In this document: positions 7,072 through 43,272 of the stretch, piece after piece
Layout of the letters: each line of letters opens with the position of its first letter
Position numbering within the stretch: position 1 is the stretch's first letter
Source of the DNA: Acidobacteriota bacterium
GTDB taxonomy: Bacteria > Acidobacteriota > UBA6911 > RPQK01 > CBDAPI01
Assembly (NCBI GenBank): GCA_965214465.1
Contig: CBDCBX010000020.1
Coordinates: forward strand, 554,363 to 618,362
Length of the DNA stretch: 64,000 nucleotides
Reading direction: 5' to 3'
Made by a program: the position numbers and the translations under genes
Notes under the pieces: generated by a model
Database searches by the model: none
What the model was told of the DNA's origin: nothing
Seen by the model: the letters and a program-made list of their open reading frames with translations, nothing else

Positions 7072-9399
7072 CTAGAAAAACTTCACAGTATAGGTAACCC
7101 GTACCCCCCGCCCGATCTCCGCAGCCAGGTCCTTGATGAAGGAGGCATGGTTTCGGTAAAGCCGATCCCCCACATTGAACACGTTCACTCCCAGTTGGTG
7201 AACGAAGTGCTGACGGGCGACGGTATAGGACGCAGCCAGGTTGATGACCGTGTAGCCTGCCGTGCGGGTCTCCGTCGAGAATACATCATTGCGCTGGTTC
7301 GCCATGACTACCTCGGGCTTGAAGCTCAGTCCCTGGTGGCGGAGCTCAAAGCCGACGCGACCTCGCAGGGCCGGAATGCGGGGAAGGGATTCGGAAGTCT
7401 TCTGGAGTTCGGCGTCCACGGCATCGAGCCCCAGATTGAGCCAGAACGACTCATGAAGATTCACGTCCAGTCGCAATTCGCTGCCCACGAAACGGCTGGC
7501 GGCCTGCAGGTGCTCGTCTTCGGTGAGACCCTCTCGGATCTCGCCGGTGGGGGCCAGGAACACAAAGTTCTGGATGTCGTAATAGAAGAAACTGGCGCTG
7601 GCGTGAATTTTTTCCCCGTGGTGGCGGAGCGCCAGATCGATCCCCTGACTGCGCTCTCGTTCGAGTTGTTCGTTTCCAATCTCGAAGGCCAGATTCCCCA
7701 GGTGGCGTCCGAAGTTGTAGAGTTCCTCCAGGGCAGGGGCTCGGTAGGAACTCGTAAAGTTCGCGACAAACGCTCCTTTTTCCCAGAGCGAGAAGCGGGC
7801 TCCGGCACCCGCCGAAAAACCCGTGAAGGTACGATCCGGGGGGAGTGTCGGCTCTCTCTCACCACTGCTCCCCAAGCCCCGGGGCTCGTACCCGGTGTGC
7901 TCCATCCTCCCTCCCAGTTGCAGCTTGACCCTCTCAAACTCGATCTCCTGCAGGGTGAAGAGGGCAAAGGCCTGCTTGTCGACCGGAGGGGACAGGGCTT
8001 CTTCGCCCTGCACATCGTAGTCCCGAAACAGGCCCCAGAAACCAAAGCTTCCGGAAAACGGACCGCGCCGCGCCTGCCTGAAATCTCCTCGGTAGACCCA
8101 TTGCAGGTTGTCAAAGGTGGTACCGATTTCGGTCCTGCCTCCGGCCAGCGTCTCCACTTCGCTGTGCTGCCAGTCCGTATAGCTGAGCGACAGGCGAATG
8201 TTGTCGACGAAGCCGTCAAGCTTACGAAAGCCTCCCATCAGGCGAGTGTTATGGCGCCGGAAATCGAGATCAACGGACTCGAGGGCTTCCTCGCCGATCG
8301 GCTCTGCTCCCCCTGCTGTGCCCAGTCGGAGAGGCTCTGTTCCTCTTCCTTCAGGTTGGCCTCCGGCGGCGATCTCGGCAGCAAAGGGGATGCCATAGCG
8401 GCCCTCATTAAAGCGGTAGCCGAAGTTGAGGAAGGTCTTTTCTCCATACCAGCCGAGACCGGTCGTGCCGTTGCTGATTCGGGTGCCGGAGTTCTCCACG
8501 ACTCCGATCGGGGTATGGTAGTCGCCCGTCCTCTGGCCGCCACCACCGCCCCAGAAAAGCCACGGTCCGGTCCCGTATTCAGCCCGGGCACTGGCTCCGC
8601 CCTGGGCGTTGGCGGAACCGGCCACCCCGGTGAACTGTCCTCGCAGGCCCTGGTGGGACTGCTGATGGTCACCCACATGTCCGGTGATGGCATTGACCAC
8701 TCCTCCCACGGCGTTGCTTCCATAGAGAAGTGTGGCCGGACCTTTGAGCACCTCGATTCGTTCCAGATTGGCTGCGTCAATCGGCTCCCCGTGGTCGCCC
8801 GACTGGGAGGCCAGTGAGCCGACTCGAACCCCGTCCTCCATGACCAGAACCCGATCGCCGTCAAAACCGCGCAGGATGGGCCGGGCGCTGCCCGGTCCGA
8901 AGCTGCGCTTGGCCACCCCTGGCTGCCCGTCCAGCAGCTCGCCGATGGATGAGGACATCTTCTGAGCCAGATCGAAGGAATCGAGCGAAGTGACCGACTG
9001 GATCGACTCGAAGGCGGTTTCCTGGGTACCTTTGGCCGTGACCGTCACCTCTTCCTTGATGGTGGAGAGCTTGAGCTTGAGATCGATCCTGGTGATCTCA
9101 CCGGGTCGGACCCGGACCAACGCGGTGAGGGAGTTCAAGGAGCCGCCGTACGCCACCAGATCGTAGACGCCCGGGGGAACACCCGCGAAGGTGTAGGTGC
9201 CGTCCGGAGCCGTCTCGGCCATCTGATTCAACTGTACGAGCAGCACCTCGGCGTTGTGCATGGGAGTCCCGGTCTGCTCGAGCAGGACCTTGCCGGTGAT
9301 CGTGCCAGCCGTCTGGGCGGGCAGCAGGGCGACCGCTGAAATCAGAATCAAACCAGGAACGGAAAGGGGTCCGCCTCCCGGTCTCCTTTTGAGACACAT
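7072..9399 (-). CDS. TonB-dependent outer-membrane receptor with N-terminal carboxypeptidase-regulatory-like domain
   Basis: 775 aa. Signal peptide, plug-domain motif NAVGGVVNAITG, beta-barrel and C-terminal aromatic ...TVKFF. Confidence 0.85.
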   Translation of the reverse strand: MCLKRRPGGGPLSVPGLILISAVALLPAQTAGTITGKVLLEQTGTPMHNAEVLLVQLNQMAETAPDGTYTFAGVPPGVYDLVAYGGSLNSLTALVRVRPGEITRIDLKLKLSTIKEEVTVTAKGTQETAFESIQSVTSLDSFDLAQKMSSSIGELLDGQPGVAKRSFGPGSARPILRGFDGDRVLVMEDGVRVGSLASQSGDHGEPIDAANLERIEVLKGPATLLYGSNAVGGVVNAITGHVGDHQQSHQGLRGQFTGVAGSANAQGGASARAEYGTGPWLFWGGGGGQRTGDYHTPIGVVENSGTRISNGTTGLGWYGEKTFLNFGYRFNEGRYGIPFAAEIAAGGQPEGRGTEPLRLGTAGGAEPIGEEALESVDLDFRRHNTRLMGGFRKLDGFVDNIRLSLSYTDWQHSEVETLAGGRTEIGTTFDNLQWVYRGDFRQARRGPFSGSFGFWGLFRDYDVQGEEALSPPVDKQAFALFTLQEIEFERVKLQLGGRMEHTGYEPRGLGSSGEREPTLPPDRTFTGFSAGAGARFSLWEKGAFVANFTSSYRAPALEELYNFGRHLGNLAFEIGNEQLERERSQGIDLALRHHGEKIHASASFFYYDIQNFVFLAPTGEIREGLTEDEHLQAASRFVGSELRLDVNLHESFWLNLGLDAVDAELQKTSESLPRIPALRGRVGFELRHQGLSFKPEVVMANQRNDVFSTETRTAGYTVINLAASYTVARQHFVHQLGVNVFNVGDRLYRNHASFIKDLAAEIGRGVRVTYTVKFF

Positions 9400-9473: not shown

Positions 9474-9806
9474 CTAGCTCAGGTGGGCCGGAGGAGCCCG
9501 AAGAGAGGGCGTGAGGAGTTGCAAGAAGGGAGCAATCGGGGTGGATTCGGCGGGCCGGTCGGCCTGAAAGGAGAGAGAAACGAGAGAAGGAGCGGTCAGT
9601 TCAGGTGCAAGCTTGACCAGGTGCAGACAGAGATGGTCTCCCTGTACATGACTCTCGTGGAAGGTCTGATTCTGGTGGGAATGATGATCCTGCTTGCACT
9701 GCTCCTCGATGGGGTGCAGGACTTCCACCACCTGGCCCACGCTGAAGACCAGCAACAGCAGCACCAGTAACCCGGAACATGCCACTCTTACCAAGGGAAG
9801 GAACAC
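9474..9806 (-). CDS. small secreted His/Cys-rich protein (hypothetical), co-oriented 74 bp upstream of the TonB receptor
   Basis: 110 aa. Signal-like MFLPLVRVACSGLLVLLLLVFS followed by HPIEEQCKQDHHSHQNQTFHESHVQGDHLCLH (8 His and 2 Cys in 32 aa). Composition is plausible. The overlapping + strand ORF 9483..9770 looks less protein-like. Confidence 0.3.
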   Translation of the reverse strand: MFLPLVRVACSGLLVLLLLVFSVGQVVEVLHPIEEQCKQDHHSHQNQTFHESHVQGDHLCLHLVKLAPELTAPSLVSLSFQADRPAESTPIAPFLQLLTPSLRAPPAHLS

Positions 9807-10150
9807 GCAACCAGTCTAACACGGGAGGATTCGAATTCCGGAAGAGTGGGCGGTGCCTCAGTGCGGCGATCCCCGGCCCCAACCCGGCATCTTCGCAAGC
9901 GACTGCGCAGAGGCGTTCAGTCACCGGAATCACCTCGCCGGAGACGGTTTTTGCGAAAGTGTACATTTGTTGTTGCCTTATGTAATCCGGTGTGGGATGA
10001 TCCCCTTCGTACCCGAAAGAGGCTGTTAGTTTACGTCGCTCAGGAGGTTGGCGTGCGTTCGAGAGGCTGGGTGACGAGTCCTTCCATCAACTGCTGATCC
10101 TTGCATAAATCCAGAATTTAGAATCTGCAATCCAGGATTGCAAATAGAGT

Positions 10151-10214
10151 TCCCCACCCCCGCCCCGCAAGGGGCGAACACTAAAGCCGGGGCTTCCCCG
10201 CCCCGGCTTTTTTT
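10151..10214 (+). terminator. two-hairpin intrinsic-terminator-like repeat unit, copy 1
   Basis: CCCCGCCCC-GCAA-GGGGCG hairpin with GNRA loop, then GCCGGGGC-TTCC-GCCCCGGC hairpin (10186-10207) followed by a 7-T run. Nearly identical unit at 11411-11477. Confidence 0.5.
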
Positions 10215-10327
10215 GCCCGGTTCCCCACTCAATCGGCCCGCAAGGCCGCAAGGAACGTCCACCAGGCAATTAAGCCGCAGAGGCAGGAGCTTTAAGCGAC
10301 TGCGTCCGGCCGCAGGCCGCGTTCGGA

Positions 10328-10750
10328 CTATCCTCTCGCTTGCTCTTCGAGCAGCCTGAGCAGATGCGCTGTCGTGTAGCATTGGATCCCACTGATCTGG
10401 AGATCGCGGTCGTTAGACCAGAGAGGCAGGTCAAGAGACCGAGCCAGGGCCAGTGGATGGGCATCGTCGGTGTCGCGTGTTCTCAAGAGCTCAGTGGCCC
10501 AGTCAAAGTGTTCAGCGTAAAAGTCAGCCGGGTGGACATCCACAGGCAGGATGCGCAACTGAAGCCGCACCTCATGTTGGGACAGTTCATACTTTGCAGA
10601 GAGACGCGGCAAATAGCGCTCCACTTCCAGGAGGTTGAACTCCGTGGTGTGAACCTGGAGGGCGTGATCAGTGAACACTCGAAGTGCCGCTTTGCCGATG
10701 ATGGCCGAAAGCAGGACGTTGGCATCAGCGACGACGGCAGCGATGGGCAT
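10328..10750 (-). CDS. vapC: type II toxin, PIN-domain ribonuclease VapC
   Basis: 140 aa. PIN-like acidic residues (VVADANVLL ... D ... D). Overlaps the upstream antitoxin by 26 nt. Confidence 0.75.
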   Translation of the reverse strand: MPIAAVVADANVLLSAIIGKAALRVFTDHALQVHTTEFNLLEVERYLPRLSAKYELSQHEVRLQLRILPVDVHPADFYAEHFDWATELLRTRDTDDAHPLALARSLDLPLWSNDRDLQISGIQCYTTAHLLRLLEEQARG

Positions 10751-10985
10751 CGAAATCCTCTTGGACGTCCTCCTCAGTAACGCCCTTAGATCTGAGTTCC
10801 TGATCTAGATAACGTCCCAGAACCCCCGCCAGCTCCCGCCGCAGGTCGTCCGGGATCCGATTCGGCTGGTCGAGAGGCAAATACAGGCCCGAAATCTTGC
10901 CGTGGCGAGTAATCAAGACGGGCTCGTGGCCTCCAAATAGCGAAGCCATCTGAGATCGGACCTTGCGAATTCCTGCAATCTTCAT
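10725..10985 (-). CDS. vapB: type II antitoxin, Phd/YefM-like (VapB)
   Basis: 86 aa. LFGGHEPVLITRHGKISGLYLP resembles the Phd/YefM antitoxin core. Coupled to the PIN toxin. AT-richer region upstream (10990-11220). Confidence 0.65.
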   Translation of the reverse strand: MKIAGIRKVRSQMASLFGGHEPVLITRHGKISGLYLPLDQPNRIPDDLRRELAGVLGRYLDQELRSKGVTEEDVQEDFDAHRCRRR

Positions 10986-11410
10986 GTCGACATGCCCCTG
11001 CTCTGAGCCTACCTCTGGAAGAGGAATGAGTCAACAACTGTGTACACAGATGCGCTGATTTGCCGTGGAGCTGAGTCTGTGAAAATGCGCGCTTCCTGAT
11101 GATCATTAGCACCAAAATGTCAAGGTCACGGGAATTGCATGGGATCCATGCTTGAGTTTCGCAATCTGTTGTGAAATGATGTGATTGAGGGGTCATTCGA
11201 ACAATTTAGTCGTCAGGTTTTTTACTCGAGCAGCAACCGGCTGCGGATCAGAGAGGCTCCTTTCCCGGGCGTTCCGCCCGTACTCAAAGGAAGCTCATAA
11301 CGAGGGTCGGTCTGTAGCCAGTCCCGCAATTTGTGGAACGGACTCAGGAGGCGTTTGAAAGGGAACCCGAGATGCGCATCAGCGGGGGTTCCCGAGGTTA
11401 GTCCAAGATT

Positions 11411-11477
11411 CCCCAACCCCGCCCCGAAAAAGGGGCGAACACTAAAGCCGGGGCTTCCCCGCCCCGGCTTTTTCTTT
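11411..11477 (+). terminator. two-hairpin terminator-like repeat unit, copy 2 (group II intron insertion site)
   Basis: Same unit as 10151-10214. Hairpin 11447-11468, T-run 11469-11477. The intron 5' end GTGCG starts at 11478. Confidence 0.55.
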
Positions 11478-11530
11478 GTGCGCCCGGCAGGGCGCACCCA
11501 TTTGGAGATGAAAGTTCTCTACGAACCCGA

Positions 11531-11581
<51 letters not shown>

Positions 11582-11886
11582 TGAAGGAAGCCGCAGGCAA
11601 AGCGCTGGCCTGACGAACAGGAATCGCATATGAGGCGGACGTGCTGGATGAGAAGGCAAATATCTTCAAAGTCCAATACCTGTACGGAAAGCACGGACGT
11701 AGATGCGGCGGGCATAAGCGTGAAGGTGGGTGCGCATTACCCGGGGAGGTCTGCCAGTAGGCCATAGTGCTACTGTCGTCGAGAGGCGGCGGGATGAACT
11801 GGTAGAAGTCAGCCGAGGGCATATTACCTCCATCGACCGGAGGGAAGGCCCGAACGCGAAGAAACGGAAAGGAGACTCGAATTTCG

Positions 11887-12599
11887 ATGACGAGAGGAGA
11901 CGCAGACAGGAAGGCTGAGAAGCCTGAAACCTGTCCAGGAGGTAGCCGACGGAAGCGGCGAGGGACTGGGCGAGGTGCGTCAAACGTCACGGTAAAGAGA
12001 GAGAACTCCAGTCCGGAAGCGATGCATCTGATGGAAGCAGTGGTCGAACGCGAGAACATGCTGGTAGCTCTCAAGCGGGTAGAGGCCAACGGCGGCGCTG
12101 CGGGAGTCGATGAGATGACCGTAGAAGAACTGAGGCCCTATCTGAAGGAGCACTGGCCGCGGATCAAAGAGGAACTGCTGGAGGGACGGTACCAGCCACA
12201 GCCTGTGCGAAGGGTGGAAATCCCCAAACCAGGTGGGGGAAAGCGCCAGTTAGGCATTCCCACGGTGGTGGACCGGCTGATTCAGCAGGCGCTGCATCAG
12301 GTTCTGACGCCGATCTTTGACCCGGACTTCTCGGAGTCAAGCTACGGCTTTCGCCCTGGCCGAAGTGCCCACCAGGCCGTGCAGCAAGCACGAGCTTACG
12401 TGGTGCAAAGCAAGCGGTGGGTCGTAGATCTGGACTTGGAGAAGTTCTTCGACCGAGTCAACCACGACATTTTAATGTCGCGGGTAGCGAGGAAGGTCAA
12501 GGATAAGCGGATTCTCAGACTGATTCGCCGCTATCTGCAGGCCGGCATGATGACCGGTGGCGTGGTATCGGCGCGCCGCGAGGGGATGCTGCGTATTCC
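11887..12599 (+). pseudogene. group II intron reverse transcriptase-maturase, N-terminal part (split by IS21 insertion)
   Basis: [30 protein letters not shown] ... RWVVDLDLEKFFDRVNHD (RT domains 0-2). Reading frame is broken at 12599/12600 by the IS. Confidence 0.8.
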
Positions 12600-12810
12600 G
12601 GGCCAAACCGGCCACTGATTCCGATTGAAACCGGCCACCTGTTCCGGGCCAATCCGGCCGGTGATTCCGGGGCAAAGTAGGCCACTTTGCCGGGCTTTTC
12701 CGGAATCGGTGGTCAGGTTAGCGGAAAGTTCCTGCCCTCAGGAGTTTGCGACGCTGGGCAACGCGGACTATCGTTGCTCCTTTTTCACTTAGAGAGGAAG
12801 AGGAGAACAG

Positions 12811-14373
12811 ATGGCCAATCGGAGGCTGCCCATGCGCAAGATCAAGGAGATTCTCAGACTACATTTTCAGGCCCACTTGTCAGCTCGCCAGATCGCTCGC
12901 AGCTGCTCGGTGTCTCGGGCTACCGTGGGTGATTACCTGAGCCGGACCCGGGCCGCCCAGCTCGACTGGAAACAGGTGGCCCAGATGAGCGAGGTCGAGC
13001 TGGAAGGACAGCTTTTTTCTCCTCCGGCTCCTCGGGGCCGCCACCGCTCTCCACCGGACTTTGCCTACGTTCACCGAGAGCTGCGGGCCAAGTCAGTCAC
13101 GCTGCAGTTGCTCTGGCAGGAGTACAAACAGGGTCATCCGGACGGCTACCAGTACTCGCAGTTTTGCGATCTGTACAACCGCTGGAGAGGAAAGCTCGAC
13201 GTGGTGCTGCGGCAAAACCACCGGGCCGGCGAGAAGATGTTCGTCGACTATGCCGGCCAGACGGTCGAGATTGTCGATCCCAAGACCGGTGAGATGCGTC
13301 AAGCCAACATCTTCGTGGCCGTCTTGGCGGCCAGTAACTACACCTATGCCGAAGCTACCGAAAGCCAGGATCTTGAATCCTGGATCGGAGCTCACGTGCG
13401 GGCCGTGGAGTTTTACGGTGGCACTACCCGGGTGGTGATCCCGGATAACACCCGCACGGCTGTCTCTCAGGCTTGCTTTTACGAGCCACAGATCAACCCC
13501 AGCTACGCCGAGTGGGCAGCCCATTATTCAGTGGCAGTCATCCCGGCCCGGGTGCGGGCTCCTCGGGACAAGGGGAAAGTCGAATCGGCCGTTTTGATCG
13601 TCGAGCGCTGGATCCTGGCCGCCCTGCGCAAGCGACGCTTCTTCAGCCTGGGTGAGCTCAATGCAGCCATCCACGAACTGCTTGGAGAACTCAACCGCCG
13701 GCCTTTCCGCAAACTTGAGGGCAATCGCCTCGAGCTCTTCCGGCGTCTGGATCAGCCCGCTCTCAGACCCTTACCCAGGATCCGTTATCAGCTGGCTCGC
13801 TGGAAGAAAGCCCGCGTCAACATCGACTACCACGTCGAGTTCGAGCGCCACTACTACAGCGTCCCCTATGCTCTGGTCCGTCAGCAGGTCGAGATCCGTT
13901 ACACCCAACACATCGTGGAGATCCTGCACCGGGGCCAGCGGGTGGCCTCGCATCGTCGCAACCGCGTGTCAGGAGCCGCCTCTACCTGCTCCGAGCACCG
14001 TCCACAGTGTCACCGCCGTTATCTGGAGTGGTCTCCTTCGCGGCTGATCTCCTGGGCTGCCAAGATCGGACCCCACTGTGGTGATCTGGTCGAGAAGATG
14101 CTCGCCTCTCGCCGCTATCCGGAACAGGCCTACCGCAGCTGCCTGGGACTGTTGCGGTTGGGCAAGACCTTCGGCGAGGATCGCCTGGAGGCCGCCTGCC
14201 GGCGGGCCCTGGCCTTCTCCACCTTCTCCTACCAGAGCGTCAAGTCCATTCTCAAGACAGGTCTGGACTCCCAACCATTACCCGAGACCCAACCACCACA
14301 ACCGGCTCTGGAACACTCGAACCTGCGCGGAGCCGACTACTTCACTTGTGAGGAAAACTTCCATGCTCATTAA
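12811..14373 (+). CDS. istA: IS21-family transposase
   Basis: 520 aa. N-terminal HTH (RQIARSCSVSRATVGDYL) then DDE core. Overlaps istB at the ATGCTCATTAA start/stop. Confidence 0.85.
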   Translation: MANRRLPMRKIKEILRLHFQAHLSARQIARSCSVSRATVGDYLSRTRAAQLDWKQVAQMSEVELEGQLFSPPAPRGRHRSPPDFAYVHRELRAKSVTLQLLWQEYKQGHPDGYQYSQFCDLYNRWRGKLDVVLRQNHRAGEKMFVDYAGQTVEIVDPKTGEMRQANIFVAVLAASNYTYAEATESQDLESWIGAHVRAVEFYGGTTRVVIPDNTRTAVSQACFYEPQINPSYAEWAAHYSVAVIPARVRAPRDKGKVESAVLIVERWILAALRKRRFFSLGELNAAIHELLGELNRRPFRKLEGNRLELFRRLDQPALRPLPRIRYQLARWKKARVNIDYHVEFERHYYSVPYALVRQQVEIRYTQHIVEILHRGQRVASHRRNRVSGAASTCSEHRPQCHRRYLEWSPSRLISWAAKIGPHCGDLVEKMLASRRYPEQAYRSCLGLLRLGKTFGEDRLEAACRRALAFSTFSYQSVKSILKTGLDSQPLPETQPPQPALEHSNLRGADYFTCEENFHAH

Positions 14374-15106
14374 CCAGACTCTCGAAAAACTTCACTCCAT
14401 GCGCCTGACCGGCCTGGCCGAGGCTCTCACCCAGCAACTCGAAGATCCCGACTCCTCCGTTCTCAGCTTCGAGGAGCGTATCGGCTGGCTGATTGATCGA
14501 CACTGGCTCTGGAGAGAGAACCAGGTCCAGGCCCGGCGCCTGAAAAACGCCCATCTCAAGGACAGCCAGGCTTGCCTCGAGGATATCGACTACCGTCCTG
14601 CCAGAGGACTGGATCGATCCCTCGTCCGTTCCCTGGCCACCTGCGACTGGATCACCAGACATCAGAATCTCATCCTGCTTGGCCCCTGCGGTGTGGGTAA
14701 GACCTTTCTGGCCTGTGCCTTCGCCCAACTGGCTATCCGCCAGGGCCACACAGCCTTCTATACCCGCCAGCCTGTACTCTTTCGAGAACTCTCCATAGCT
14801 CGCGCCGACGGGACTCTGCACAAACGCCTGGCAAAACTGGCCCGTGTCGATATCCTCATCGTCGATGACTTCGCCATGACGGCCTTGGCTGAGAGCGAAC
14901 GTCGTGACTTCCTCGAGATCTGCGAGGATCGTTACAACACTCGCTCCACCATCTTGATCAGCCAGATCCCCATTGCCGATTGGCACCAACAGATCGGTGA
15001 TCCGACTCTGGCCGACAGCATCTTAGACCGGCTCGTTCACAACGCCCATCGCCTGCAACTCGCAGGAGGTTCCATGCGAAAGCGTCTGGCGGCTTCTCAG
15101 GACTAA
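14363..15106 (+). CDS. istB: IS21-family ATP-binding helper protein
   Basis: Walker A LLGPCGVGKTFLA and Walker B ILIVDDF. Start ATG at 14363 overlaps the istA stop. The ORF-track start at 14078 is an in-frame upstream extension. Confidence 0.85.
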   Translation: MLINQTLEKLHSMRLTGLAEALTQQLEDPDSSVLSFEERIGWLIDRHWLWRENQVQARRLKNAHLKDSQACLEDIDYRPARGLDRSLVRSLATCDWITRHQNLILLGPCGVGKTFLACAFAQLAIRQGHTAFYTRQPVLFRELSIARADGTLHKRLAKLARVDILIVDDFAMTALAESERRDFLEICEDRYNTRSTILISQIPIADWHQQIGDPTLADSILDRLVHNAHRLQLAGGSMRKRLAASQD

Positions 15107-15421
15107 AGGCAAAAAGGCTATGGAAACTGCCGCCCTGTGCAAACCCATTCAGCGCTTTGCAGATCTGCTCAGGATTCCCGCACGTGGGTTCTCACAGGGC
15201 TTGGAAAACTCCTCGCTGCGCTCGGCAGTTTCCCACAGTTCCCACCGCCTCTACGACTACTTCACACACATCTTTATCGGAGGTTTCTTGAATGCCAATC
15301 GATCCAAGCTACATTGACTCAAAACGGCCACCTGGCACATCATGAAATCCCCAGCGTCGCTTCGCTCCGACCGGGTGGCCACTTTCCCCGGATTGGGTGG
15401 CCGGTTTCACCGGAATACGCA

Positions 15422-16174
15422 GATGCCGCAAGGCGGTCCTCTCTCTCCCGTGCTCTCCAATGTGCTACTGGATGAGCTGGACAAGGAACTGGAGAGGCGA
15501 GAACATGCTTTCTGCCGCTATGCTGATGATTGCAATGTCTATGTGCGGTCGCAGCGAGCCGGTGAGCGTTGGTCTCGTTGACACAGTTTCTGGAGAAGCG
15601 CCTCAAGCTGAGAGTCAACACTGCCAAAAGTGCAGTGGATCGCCCGTGGAGGCGAAAGTTCTTGGGTTATTCGATGACGGCGCACCGGGAAACTCGGCTG
15701 AAAGTGGCCGCTAGCTCAGTGCAACGTCTGAAGAAACGGCTCAAGGTGGCTTTTCGTCAAGGAAGGGGACGCAACCGGCAACGATTCATCGAAGAACTCC
15801 AGCCTCTGCTGCGCGGATGGGTACAATACTTCAAGCTGGCAGAGGTGAAAGGGACCTTTGAGGAATTGGACGGCTGGATTCGGCGGCATTTGCGCTGTCT
15901 GATCTGGCGTCAATGGAAACGAACCTGGACCCGGGCCAAGAACCTGAGGGCGCGGGGCCTGACGGAAAAACGTGCATGGAAGTCCGCGACCAACGGACGG
16001 GGTCCCTGGTGGAATGCCAGAGCCTCCCACATGCACGCAGCTTTTCCCAAGGCCTACTTTGATCGGTTGGGTCTCGTGTCGCTGCTGACGGAGCAGCGTC
16101 GGTTTCAGCGTTTTTCGCGAACCGCCGTGGTACGGAACCGTATGCCCGGTGGTGTGGGAGGACGGCAGGGGTGA
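15422..16174 (+). pseudogene. group II intron reverse transcriptase-maturase, C-terminal part (RT motif YADD plus maturase X domain)
   Basis: ...PQGGPLSPVLSNVLLDELD...FCRYADDCNVYV then a maturase-like region (GWVQYFKLAE...). Splicing out the IS restores ...ARREGMPQGGPLSP.... Confidence 0.8.
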
Positions 16175-16189
16175 CCCTGCCTCCTACCC
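16156..16189 (+). ncRNA. group II intron domain V (34-nt hairpin with GNRA tetraloop)
   Basis: GGGAGGACGGCAGGG-GUGA-CCCUGCCUCCUACCC: 14-bp stem, 3'-strand bulge, GUGA tetraloop. The IEP stop codon TGA (16172-16174) lies in the loop. Confidence 0.45.
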
Positions 16190-16398
16190 GATCCCTTCCA
16201 ACCACCGAATCGGCCCGCAAGGCCGTGAGGAAACAGTACTCGCCAGAGCACAACGCTTGTTTCCGGCCCGGGGTTTCTGTATTACCTTTGGAAGGCGTAA
16301 GCTGACATGGTGACCCATCGCTTCATCCTAAGCTGGAACTCTGAAACCAGGAGGCATGGTTCAAGGGGTGCGATAGGCGTAATCCAGACAGAAAAGGC

Positions 16399-21486: not shown

Positions 21487-22026
21487 AGTTCTAGGGCGAC
21501 CTTAGCGCCTCAGCTCCGGTGTGGCTTGAGCCACTGCCCTATTTTGCTGGGATGCGGTCTCGATGACGCGCTCCAGTGTACCGGGTTCGAGCCGGTGTCG
21601 GAGACGGCAGGATCCCCGACGAATCCATTGCGAGGACCCAATTCCCCCCGCTGCTCCCGGCAGGAACACGCAGGGTGCGCCGGTGGCCTGCTCTAAGCCG
21701 AGATTCCCCATATCAGCCTCGGATCCGAGTTCCTCTGACCTGCCCATGACGAATACTCAAAACCTATCAGCCCTTCAACCAAGGAACAAGCGTTTTTCCT
21801 CATATTTCGGCCGAAAGTATTTGCGAACCTTCTTCTTCTCGTAGCGAGCCACGATTGGTTCCGCAGCCGCAGTCTACCCAGAATAGGCCCGCGGTCCTAA
21901 CATAGAGAGTGGACTCGGTTGTGGGGGTGGGTCACTCCCTCTGATTAATAAACAAAGTTGACACACCACTAGTCTCGTACGGCCCATTTTGTCGAACGCG
22001 TGCGGCTCAAGGACCGATGCAGGACA

Positions 22027-22167
22027 ATCGCTTTCCTGTAGGTGCCAAGTGTGTTCAAATCCTCGGGCGATGAACGAATCAATCTATCAGTGGGGAGTGG
22101 CTCATGCGAATTGAAGCCGTGGAAATGCTTGTTCAGCGGAGGGATAGAACCGAGAGGACATCCATCC
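22027..22167 (+). repeat. about 140-bp direct repeat, copy 1 (5' UTR plus first 22 codons of the hypothetical gene at 27084, truncated here)
   Basis: About 92% identical to 27008-27151. Encodes MRIEAVEMLVQRRDRTERTSIP then terminates. Confidence 0.7.
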
Positions 22168-22323
22168 CGGTCGTACCCAGGTAAGAAGTACGTAGACCCT
22201 CGTCATTCGTCATTCGGTAGACAGAAGGGCCTCGGCGATGTATAGTCAATGTATATCCGTGAATGATGACCGGGCCAGCGGCTCGGGACCTCTGGAGTTG
22301 CTCTCTCGCAGAGGAGGACCCTG

Positions 22324-25481: not shown

Positions 25482-26933
25482 CCTAGCAGCCCGTGGTGAA
25501 AGTCGCCTCTCGGTCAGCCATGGCCAATAGACTTGTGCCATGTCGATGGGCAAGCGTAAGAGACAGAGGCAGAGCGAGATGTGGGTGCCGGCAACAGAGC
25601 TGGCCAAAGCGCCGGGACACCCTTTTTACCAACGCCTGAACCGAGTGCTGGGCAAGCACGGTTTCGATGATTTTGTGGAAGCGGAATGCGCCGCTTTCTA
25701 TGCCCCCAGCCGAGGGCGGCCCGGCCTGGCACCGGGCATCTATTTCCGGCTGCTGCTGGTGGGTTACTTCGAAGGGTTGAGCTCGGAGCGAGGCATTGCC
25801 TGGCGAGCCGCTGATTCGCTGGCGCTGCGCGGTTTTCTGGGACTGAATCTGAGTGAGTCACCTCCGGATCATTCGACCATCTCCAGGACCAGGCGACTGA
25901 TCGATGTGGCCACGCATGAGGCGGTTTTCTCCTGGGTGCTGAAGCGGGTAGCCGAGAGCGGGTTATTGAATGGCAAGACGATCGGCATCGATGCCACCAC
26001 GCTGGAAGCCAATGCGGCGCTGCGCAGCATCGTGAGACGAGACTCCGAGCAGGGCTACGAAGAGTTCTTAACGGAGCTGGCAGTAGCCTCCGGCATCCAG
26101 ACGCCTACTCGAGAAGATCTGGCCCTACTGGACCGCAAGCGAACCGGCAAGGGATCGAACCAGCAGTGGAAGCACCCGCAGGATGGGGATGCGCGCATCG
26201 CCAGGATGAAGGATGGGCGGACGCATCTGGCGCACAAGGCAGAGCATGCAGTGGATCTGGAGACGGGAGCCATCGTCTCGGTCACGGTGCAAGGAGCGGA
26301 TCGAGGCGATACGCAAACGATGGTCAAGACACTGATACAGGCGGCCGAGCAGGTGGAACAAGCGCTGCCGAAGGGATCGGGCATCGAAGAGGTGGTGGCC
26401 GACAAGGGATATCACAGCAGCGAGCGGATGGTGGATTTAGAAGCGCTGGGACTGCGCAGCTATGTGAGCGAACCGAAACGAGGGAAAAGACGCTGGAGAG
26501 GAGACACTCAGGCCCGTGATGCGGTCTATGGGAACCGGCGACGAATCCGGGGTCGGCGAGGACGGCAACTTTTACGACAACGAGGTGAGCTACTGGAGAG
26601 ACCGTGTGCTCACCTTTACGAGACCGGCGGGATGAGACGGGTTCACGTTCGGGGCCATGAGAATGTCTTGAAGCGGCTGCTGATTCAGGTGAGCGGATTC
26701 AATCTGGGGCTGCTGATGCGCCAGCAGTTGGGTGTGGGCACGCCGCGGGGGCTGCAGGGGCGGATTTGCCTCGTCTTGCTCCTCATTTTGTCGCTGTGGA
26801 AGCGTCTGAAGGGCCTGTTTGGCTTGATTCCGACCGCCCAGACTCAAAAGTCCCGGTCAACGCTCCCGTCGCTTCTGCCACCGGTCCGCTCGGTCTGAAG
26901 TCTGAAAACCTATTTGCACCACGGGCTGCTAGG
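25482..26933 (+). mobile_element. IS5/IS1182-like insertion sequence
   Basis: Terminal IRs CCTAGCAGCCCGTGGTG (25482-25498) and the reverse complement at 26917-26933. Single transposase ORF. A solo copy of the right end recurs at 43230-43272. Confidence 0.65.
25540..26898 (+). CDS. IS5/IS1182-family DDE transposase
   Basis: 452 aa. N-terminal region (FYQRLNRVLGKHGFDDFVE, InsH-N-like) and DDE_Tnp_1-like core (IGIDATTLEANA ... ADKGYHS). Confidence 0.75.
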   Translation: MSMGKRKRQRQSEMWVPATELAKAPGHPFYQRLNRVLGKHGFDDFVEAECAAFYAPSRGRPGLAPGIYFRLLLVGYFEGLSSERGIAWRAADSLALRGFLGLNLSESPPDHSTISRTRRLIDVATHEAVFSWVLKRVAESGLLNGKTIGIDATTLEANAALRSIVRRDSEQGYEEFLTELAVASGIQTPTREDLALLDRKRTGKGSNQQWKHPQDGDARIARMKDGRTHLAHKAEHAVDLETGAIVSVTVQGADRGDTQTMVKTLIQAAEQVEQALPKGSGIEEVVADKGYHSSERMVDLEALGLRSYVSEPKRGKRRWRGDTQARDAVYGNRRRIRGRRGRQLLRQRGELLERPCAHLYETGGMRRVHVRGHENVLKRLLIQVSGFNLGLLMRQQLGVGTPRGLQGRICLVLLLILSLWKRLKGLFGLIPTAQTQKSRSTLPSLLPPVRSV

Positions 26934-27007
26934 ATCGGGTACCGGCAACCCTGCCAATCCCAAAGGGATCTCGACCTCTTTGAGAGAAACAATCTTCTTG
27001 AGCACCA

Positions 27008-27151
27008 TTGCTTTCTTATAGGCGCCAAGTGTGTTCAAATCCTGGGGCGATGAACGAATCAATCTGTCAGTGGGGAGTGGCTCATGCGAATTGAACCCGT
27101 GGAAATGCTTGTTCAGCGGAAGGACAGAACCGAAAGGACATCCATCCCCAT
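27008..27151 (+). repeat. about 140-bp direct repeat, copy 2 (native 5' region of the gene at 27084)
   Basis: See 22027-22167. Confidence 0.7.
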
Positions 27152-42839: not shown

Positions 42840-43229
42840 CGGTATCTATTCTTGGCCATCTCGCCTGGGTGTGCAAACCGCTTGTCGCTACCGCGCAGGC
42901 ATACAGCATCGAAAACCATCGACCAAGGGCTTTTTATTGGGGACTCAGAGGGGATCACGATCACTCCAGATGGAGAGCTGGTCTATGTGCAAACACCAAA
43001 GAATCAGGCTCGGCTCTGCTCGGCGCGCTTGTTGGCTGGGGCGATCTCTTCAGGCTCTGTCCTGGCCGGCGGCAAGGGCGGCAAGCCAGACAAGGGAACA
43101 CCAGCCAGCTTCACCGTCCTCTTCAGCGGCGAGGTCTCGAGCAGCAATCTCCTGGGAGATTGCTCGGGGAACCGCATAACTAACAGATCGAACAAGATCG
43201 GGCAACTTCGTCGACACCGCTCTAGCGGT

Positions 43230-43272
43230 CTGAAGTCTGAAAACCTATTTGCACCACGGGCTGCTAGGCGTG
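43230..43272 (+). repeat. solo copy of the IS5/IS1182-like right terminal sequence
   Basis: CGGTCTGAAGTCTGAAAACCTATTTGCACCACGGGCTGCTAGG is identical to 26891-26933. No transposase adjacent. Confidence 0.55.

Follow-up and report, generated by a model that had tools for sequence, protein, structure and literature searches.

A class IIC group II intron behind one of two near-identical terminator modules, with an empty paralogous site nearby, in Acidobacteriota

Class C group II introns, among them Bacillus halodurans B.h.I1 and Oceanobacillus iheyensis O.i.I1, are small elements that insert a few nucleotides past a terminator stem-loop. Their proteins combine a reverse transcriptase with a maturase and, as is characteristic of the class, have no endonuclease domain; a CGC triad in domain V is typical of IIC introns. 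Two further kinds of site serve as a reference here, the empty homing or retrotransposition sites of mobile introns and the truncated group II intron fragments in bacterial genomes. Bacterial IIC introns pair with the 5' exon through 3-4 bp of IBS1-EBS1, have no EBS2, take a terminator stem-loop outside ORFs as their target and have splice sites 3-11 nt after the stem (PMC1702495). IIC is also the intron class known to associate with attC sites (PMC7923331). The locus described here lies in a 64-kb stretch of Acidobacteriota DNA, the whole of which we call the window. It is of a known kind, a IIC intron behind a terminator with an unoccupied paralogous site nearby. It differs from the sites of B.h.I1 and O.i.I1 in its target: a conserved noncoding module supplies the terminator, and an empty paralog of the module stands 1.26 kb upstream.

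The intron occupies positions 11478-16192 of the plus strand and measures 1878 nt without the insertion sequence that it contains; it is recognised by the Rfam families RF02001 and RF01998, and its ends are set by the homologs L009-L011. The 5' end reads GTGCGCCCGG, the D1-D4 region at 11563-11850 scores 152 bits against RF02001 and 63 bits against RF01998, and the EBS1 loop lies near 11656-11663. At the 3' end, domain V is placed at 16121-16154 and domain VI at 16156-16190, with a bulged adenosine (A16186) 7 nt from the intron 3' end, which closes in GAT. The Rfam model for domains V and VI, RF00029, gave no match to this end even at E <= 10, a difference from B.h.I1 and O.i.I1, so that the assignment of the two domains rests on folding and on the homologs. 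The last 73 nt of the intron fold into a domain V-like 34-nt hairpin followed by the domain VI hairpin (z = -4.8), the domain VI stems show compensatory changes among the four introns compared, and the triad position of domain V reads CGC. Both the 5' end and domain V presumably resemble those of O.i.I1.

The boundaries of the intron were established with the homologous introns for which DNA could be compared, L009, L011 and L010, which are 95, 93 and 74% identical to it. In BLAST comparisons of the reconstruction freed of the insertion sequence, with 100-nt flanks, against these three, the alignments started at query positions 91-100 and all stopped exactly at 1978, which corresponds to position 16192 of the window. 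All four introns start with GTGCGCCCGGCAGGGCGC and end with CCTCCTACCCGAT, the window intron reading GTGCG...CCTCCTACCCGAT, and their 3' flanks are unrelated to one another. A sequence that is repeated behind both copies of the terminator unit, here called the tail, starts a few bases 3' of 16192, in the 3' exon, and is found in none of the flanks of the homologs. The preliminary description had taken 16210-16236 for a domain VI-like sequence at the intron 3' end. This placement is corrected here: the intron stops at 16192, short of the stretch at 16208-16236, and its actual domain VI (GGGAGGACGGCAGGGGTGACCCTGCCTCCTACCC) does not resemble the tail.

When the repaired intron protein was used as query, thousands of relatives were returned, the best at 95% identity, and intact homologs have 439-467 aa with PF00078 and PF08388 only. 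Within the window protein, Pfam recognised RVT_1 in the N-terminal half (11887-12618) and GIIM in the maturase half (15569-16174) and no endonuclease domain, as in B.h.I1 and O.i.I1. Contrary to those introns, however, the window intron is dead. An IS21-family element at 12590-15421 (plus strand) lies inside the intron ORF, as recognised from Pfam matches, from its inverted ends (TGCGTATTCC...GGAATACGCA) and from a 5-bp target duplication, GATGC, at 12585-12589 and 15422-15426; its istA gene is at 12811-14373 (520 aa) and its istB gene ends at 15106. Removing the element joins REGM to PQGGPLSP and restores the reading through to YADD, and a frameshift persists near 15565 in the reverse transcriptase. 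Judged from these lesions, the IS21 insertion and the frameshift have inactivated the intron.

The ends of the IS21 element coincide with synteny breaks in two genomes that are about 99% identical, represented by L002/L003 (ENA ERZ25074053) and L005/L006 (ERZ28763718). There the intron is split, the 5' half adjoining IS21 and IS21 adjoining the 3' half in the opposite orientation, about 590 kb apart. Since the halves are inverted and each adjoins IS21, this arrangement indicates an inversion that would have taken place between two IS21 copies. The 95% relative, L009 776-2803 (ENA ERZ28763718:ctg125560), is the closest intact one, yet it is itself broken at about intron position 347 by a second element of about 2 kb with a 453-aa reverse transcriptase/maturase, an intron nested in an intron. 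The locus as a whole is rich in mobile elements (IS21, other transposases and toxin-antitoxin cassettes). Elsewhere in the window we noted a 148-nt direct repeat with 92% identity (22021-22168 and 27001-27148) and a perfect 43-nt repeat (26891-26933 and 43226-43268), the first copy of which overlaps the end of a 452-aa ORF at 25540-26898; both repeats probably derive from insertion sequences, as their ends or as solo ends.

The 5' exon of the intron is the second, downstream copy of a two-hairpin unit. Copy 1, at 10150-10214 of the plus strand, carries no intron and consists of a C-rich leader (TTCCCCACCCC), hairpin 1 at 10161-10176 with a GCAA loop, a spacer, terminator hairpin 2 at 10186-10207 with the loop TTCCCC, and a run of seven T residues at 10208-10214. 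Copy 2, at 11409-11477 of the same strand, has hairpin 1 at 11420-11437 with a GAAAAA loop, terminator hairpin 2 at 11447-11468 and the T-run TTTTTCTTT. In a repeat comparison within the window, 10169-10212 and 11430-11473 were identical at 44 of 44 nt, and the terminator 30-mer AAAGCCGGGGCTTCCCCGCCCCGGCTTTTT occurs exactly twice in the 64 kb, compared with 0 expected from shuffles. Aligned over about 66 positions, the copies show one substitution and differ otherwise in the hairpin 1 loop and the T-run. Each unit folds as a 6-bp hairpin, a spacer, a GC hairpin of 8-11 bp and the T residues (z = -5.8 for copy 2), and a generic scan called terminator-like sites on both strands at both units. 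With an identical 44-nt core and hairpins that fold, the two-hairpin unit described earlier does exist in two copies; the GNRA tetraloop that had been ascribed to both is found in hairpin 1 of copy 1 only, the loop of copy 2 being the 6-nt GAAAAA.

Behind the T-run of copy 1, the tail at 10215-10256 (plus strand) comprises GCCCGG, the spacer TTCCCCACTCAAT, hairpin 3 (CGGCC-CGCAA-GGCCG, 10234-10248) and CAAGGAAC. It is colinear with 16193-16233 (plus strand), the tail of copy 2, which lies beyond the point where all homologous introns stop matching and comprises CCCTTCCAACCACCGAAT, hairpin 3 (CGGCC-CGCAA-GGCCG, 16211-16225) and TGAGGAAA. The repetition of the tail, reported in the preliminary description, is confirmed, with 87% identity between 10225-10255 and 16202-16232; in the window the 18-mer AATCGGCCCGCAAGGCCG occurs at these two places only, where 0.14 would be expected. 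The tail spacer TTCC..CCAC..AAT is common to both window tails and absent from the tails of other species, so part of the likeness between the window tails may stem from lineage-specific gene conversion rather than simple descent.

We then compared copy 1 with the copy-2 site after removal of the intron, joining 11380-11477 to 16193-16290. The joined sequence gave one colinear local alignment with copy 1, with a score of 148; the unit by itself scores 110 and the tail by itself 43. It spans 10146-10256, runs straight across the junction and leaves no residue over, whereas copy 1 aligns with the intron-containing sequence over the common unit only. Since removal of 11478-16192 produces this colinearity, 10146-10256 is an empty sister copy of the copy-2 site, and the tail is 3' exon. 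Copy 1 resembles the empty homing or retrotransposition sites of mobile introns in that it corresponds exactly to the copy-2 site with the intron taken out and keeps the stem-loop and TTT; it differs from them in lying within the same genome, as a paralogous rather than allelic site, and in being a predicted target. The TTT at 10212-10214 matches the AAA of the intron EBS1. With an identical stem-loop and TTT at the right distance, copy 1 is, as far as its sequence tells, a compatible but unused target and not a relic.

The distribution of the unit was examined by scanning an exact 20-mer over 185,579 species-representative genomes. It is present in two of them, both Acidobacteriota and one a complete 5.4-Mb chromosome, once each and at the orthologous locus. 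A metagenome scan gave one true match, also orthologous, on a short contig (Ga0310123_10283665, L012 below); another metagenome match, L013, was rejected as a chance match inside a coding region. A fourth lineage, L014, was found through a look-up of neighbouring genes. Next to amidohydrolase neighbours at 64-67% identity, synteny is lost and the module is absent. The module is so far known from about five closely related Acidobacteriota sequences.

Compared with copy 1, the ortholog in L007 is 100% identical, that in L008 differs by 1 base and that in L014 by 3. Unit 1 of L007 has ...TTTGTCTGCCCGGCCCGCAGGCCATTAGGAAC, the unit being followed by GTCTGCCCGGCCCGCAGGCCATTAGGAAC; the single unit of L014 has ...TTTTGCCTGGCCAAAAAGATCACCGGCCCTCAGGCCGCCAGGGCAC, the unit being followed by TGCCTGGCCAAAAAGATCACCGGCCCTCAGGCCGCCAGGGCAC; and unit 2 of L008 has ...TTTGCCCGCAGACC, the unit being followed by GCCCGCAGACC, with the tail in reduced form. 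In L008 about 380 nt separate units 1 and 2, and neither a toxin-antitoxin cassette nor an intron is present. A CGGCC-loop-GGCCG hairpin, together with GCCYGG, stands 3' of the T-run in intron-free copies of both paralogs across these three other lineages, and L008 and L007 have a degraded or shortened tail. Between genomes the unit is 97-100% identical, compared with 70-80% in the intergenic DNA beside it and 79-89% in the flanks, which consist mostly of genes. The copy-specific hairpin 1 loops, GCAA and GAAAAA, are kept across species, which points to an old paralogy at one locus and to vertical descent. In the lowest part of the terminator stem, A has changed to G twice independently, once in L014 and once in L008A and L012, and both times pairing is kept only as G-U, on the plus strand.

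The metagenome contig L012 reads, on the reverse strand over positions 1-64, ...GGCTTTTTTT GTGCGCCCGGCAGG CTTAAGC.... Here GTGCGCCCGGCAGG matches the first 14 nt of the intron perfectly, at the exact junction behind a copy-2-type unit. Past this stub come 820 unrelated nucleotides, with a 260-aa membrane protein on the minus strand, and then the carbamoyltransferase upstream region. The stub is probably a deletion scar of the intron at the copy-2 site. It is like the truncated group II intron fragments in bacterial genomes, with 14 nt at the expected junction, whereas copy 1 of the window differs from such fragments, having neither GTGCG nor any domain V/VI sequence. As in the window, L012 joins unit 2 to the carbamoyltransferase gene, and this linkage suggests that the window arrangement is the older one. 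Separately, L014 has a domain V/VI match at 625-703 of the plus strand (RF00029, 56 bits), about 1.9 kb from its unit; no full intron was recognised there, and the match represents a fragment of an unrelated intron in this locus.

Between the two units of the window, at 10328-10985 of the minus strand, lie a PIN-domain toxin gene (10328-10750; Pfam PIN_2, E = 6.6e-18) and a small antitoxin ORF (10725-10985), supported by gene calls in L001. The cassette occupies this position in the window lineage only; it is absent there in L008 and located elsewhere in L007. A second short repeat, composed of GCAGAGGCAGGAGC, 7-9 nt, GAYTGCGC and a CGGCC-loop-GGCCG hairpin, occurs at 10274-10327 of the window, at about 3960-4080 in L007 and at about 2180-2320 in L014. 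In the window and in L007 this repeat stands 3' of the PIN cassette, and in L014 it is arranged in tandem, with no gene; it may delimit toxin-antitoxin cassettes that can move.

Taken together, we consider it highly probable that 10146-10256 is an intron-free module, that the corresponding module at copy 2 was hit by a IIC intron, and that the modules end two noncoding units, A and B. The preliminary description had instead read 10215-10256, behind copy 1, as what an internal deletion left of an intron at a second homing site, namely a 5' stub (TTGCCCGG) and domain VI (AATCGGCCCGCAAGGCCG). Three observations speak for such a remnant: the GCCCGG 3' of the copy 1 T-run equals intron positions 5-10, the tail recurs near the intron 3' end, and the stub in L012 shows that relics do form in this system. 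However, the likeness between TTGCCCGG and the intron 5' end is not significant, GCCCGG or its complement occurring 115 times in the window and TTGCCCGG six times, and the sequence presented as domain VI lies outside the intron according to all three homologs. Copy 1 is colinear with the copy-2 site from which the intron has been excised, with nothing left over for a remnant to account for. It had also been proposed that, should genome-wide copies of the unit all carry the tail with no intron, the tail would belong to the repeat, and the orthologs in L007, L008 and L014 do carry it. An internally deleted intron at copy 1 is therefore refuted as proposed, and we regard it as extremely improbable. 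Because GCCCGG equals intron positions 5-10 and L012 holds a stub, there is a small possibility that GCCYGG is a much older intron scar.

The preliminary description had also offered the unit itself as a repeated target module, and this was right in essence, although the module measures about 110 nt with its tail, not 65, and is a locus-specific tandem paralog rather than a genome-wide repeat. A REP- or MITE-like mobile repeat, consisting of the unit or of the unit with its tail and serving as a portable intron target throughout the genome, would agree with two hairpin-rich, intergenic copies within 1.3 kb and with the IS21, other transposases and toxin-antitoxin cassettes around them. Yet the window has the two copies only, the 20-mer was found once per genome in two related species representatives and always at the orthologous locus, the copy-specific loops have been kept by orthologs across species, and the other intron copies sit behind unrelated terminators; a dispersed repeat is on these grounds very unlikely. 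A REP-like nature of the tail hairpin was considered and rejected, CGGCC-N3-6-GGCCG occurring three times in the window and every time inside this locus. We find it hardly credible that the repeats are attC-type integron cassette boundaries flanking the PIN cassette, with the intron as an attC-associated IIC element. Direct repeats of about 110 nt do lie on either side of a toxin-antitoxin cassette, the second short repeat with its CGGCC-loop-GGCCG hairpin stands 3' of the PIN gene in the window and in L007 and in tandem in L014, and the intron is of the class associated with attC sites (PMC7923331). But no RYYYAAC or GTTRRRY core site was found on either strand when the sequence was read by eye; the unit is made of separate local hairpins and a T-run, not of one long bulged hairpin; L008 has both units with no cassette between them; there are two copies and no array, with no integrase gene found beside the units; and the other three introns stand behind plain terminators.

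An intron target at copy 2, with copy 1 as its empty paralog, fits what the four introns have in common. All are inserted 7-9 nt 3' of a GC hairpin and T-rich run, the window intron 9 nt after the stem. EBS1 AAA faces IBS1 TTT in the window intron and L010, and EBS1 ACA faces IBS1 TGT in L009 and L011; the domain I loop is GCAAAUAU in the introns whose 5' exon closes with TTT and GCACAUAU in those whose 5' exon closes with TGT. This is compensatory covariation of EBS1 and IBS1 of the 3-bp type, as in B.h.I1 and O.i.I1. For EBS3/IBS3, no G/A/T/C column that covaries was found across the four introns. The terminators used by the other three copies are plain ones, unrelated to the unit. Since the terminator targeting, the 3-bp IBS1 and the distance after the stem fit the published account (PMC1702495), the window intron is a class IIC intron, and its insertion behind a terminator is ordinary for the class.

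The history of the locus would then run as follows. A module of about 110 nt, with a C-rich leader, hairpin 1, a spacer, a GC-rich intrinsic-terminator hairpin, a T-run, GCCYGG, a second spacer and a CGGCC-loop-GGCCG hairpin, would end each of two tandemly duplicated noncoding transcription units in a narrow Acidobacteriota clade. A IIC intron would have recognised the terminator stem-loop of copy 2 together with the 3-bp IBS1 (TTT with EBS1 AAA) and reverse-spliced 9 nt past the copy 2 stem. This insertion would have moved the tail of copy 2 to 16193-16233, and the intron would later have been inactivated by the IS21 insertion and the frameshift.

The units that the modules are proposed to end extend over about 10008-10214 (A, about 207 nt) and about 11187-11477 (B, about 291 nt). 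Each is preceded on the plus strand by a promoter-like box, at 9973-10001 for A (TTGCCT, 17 nt, GATGAT) and at 11152-11180 for B (TTGAGT, 17 nt, AATGAT). The box TTGNNT-N17/18-NANNAT, with the core TGYAATCYGKTGTG, heads all seven of the A and B copies in the window, L007, L008 and L014; the conserved boxes fall below the threshold of a generic promoter scan, which called no site in 9900-11600. Within the unit B box, a 20-nt core, AATCTGTTGTGAAATGATGT, does not vary among the window, L007 and L008. The noncoding body of unit B (11181-11408, plus strand) is 72-78% identical to L007, L008 and L014; in L014, a box of the A type goes with a body of the B type. The conserved noncoding DNA upstream of each two-hairpin unit has indels that break the frame, of 29 nt and 1 nt in the unit B body, which argues against coding. 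At E <= 10, Rfam assigned no family to the unit or the bodies in the window locus, L007, L008 and L014. Weak sub-threshold matches to mmgR/suhB (21.9 bits), SorX (18.7 bits) and ftsZ-DE were terminator-driven and far below the gathering thresholds; mmgR/suhB and SorX are small RNAs with a hairpin-hairpin-terminator layout like that of A and B. RNAalifold on 2-4 orthologs gave no compensatory support for the unit B body, with an unfavourable covariation term from sequences that are few and too similar.

Several other features adjoin unit A. A perfect palindrome, TGCAATCC-A-GGATTGCA, lies at 10127-10143, just upstream of the first two-hairpin unit, and is kept in L007 and L008 (TGCAATCTAGAATTGCA); it overlaps a minus-strand TTGCAA-17 nt-TAAATT, and it could be an operator or a divergent promoter. 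The 121-aa ORF at 9601-9966 (minus strand) lacks homologs and has no conserved counterpart in L007 or L008, which makes it unlikely to be a gene. A TonB-dependent receptor gene at 7072-9399 (minus strand) is absent at this position in L007 and L008 and present in L014.

RsaE/RoxS and CcsR-type RNAs are sibling small RNAs with a Rho-independent terminator and C-rich motifs. Units A and B are like them in being adjacent paralogous units with their own promoter-like boxes and in combining unpaired C-runs (UUCCCCACCCC and the loop UUCCCC) with a strong terminator. They differ from known small RNA families in having no family membership and no structural covariation. We infer that A and B are probably tandem sibling small RNAs on the plus strand, with a near-invariant C-rich 3' domain that is probably functional and that is predicted to expose the two C-runs. 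A simpler explanation is that the units are terminators, possibly bidirectional, of the flanking protein genes, duplicated along with flanking DNA and with no small RNA involved. The terminator-like sites on both strands at both units agree with this, as do the PIN gene of the window and the 260-aa membrane-protein gene of L012, which converge on the units from the minus strand, and the lack of structural covariation in the upstream bodies. However, it is rare for a plain terminator to keep 97-100% identity when the intergenic DNA beside it falls to 70-80%, the C-rich leader, hairpin 1 and spacer are as conserved as the terminator stem, and a promoter-like box stands 200-370 nt upstream of every copy on the plus strand. 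Unit 2 of L008 follows about 370 nt of conserved noncoding DNA, with no plus-strand gene to terminate. Plain terminators are for these reasons conceivable but rather unlikely. Since minus-strand genes such as the PIN operon converge on the units, the proposed small RNA units may act as bidirectional terminators for them in addition or instead.

For intron biology, these results remove a false lead, as there is no 40-nt intron relic in the window and the apparent domain VI is flanking exon. A IIC intron chose one of two near-identical terminator modules, which leaves a natural pair of an occupied and an empty site. This pair could serve to test what directs IIC target choice beyond the stem-loop and the 3-bp IBS1. 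To our knowledge, no small RNAs have been characterised in Acidobacteriota. It is possible, though we hold it tentatively and with some doubt, that A and B represent an undescribed family of tandem sibling small RNAs in a narrow Acidobacteriota clade, whose terminators would have been repeatedly invaded and vacated by IIC introns, with the L012 stub, and perhaps GCCYGG, as scars. The two units form a candidate pair of conserved noncoding RNAs in Acidobacteriota that would be worth looking for in transcriptomes.
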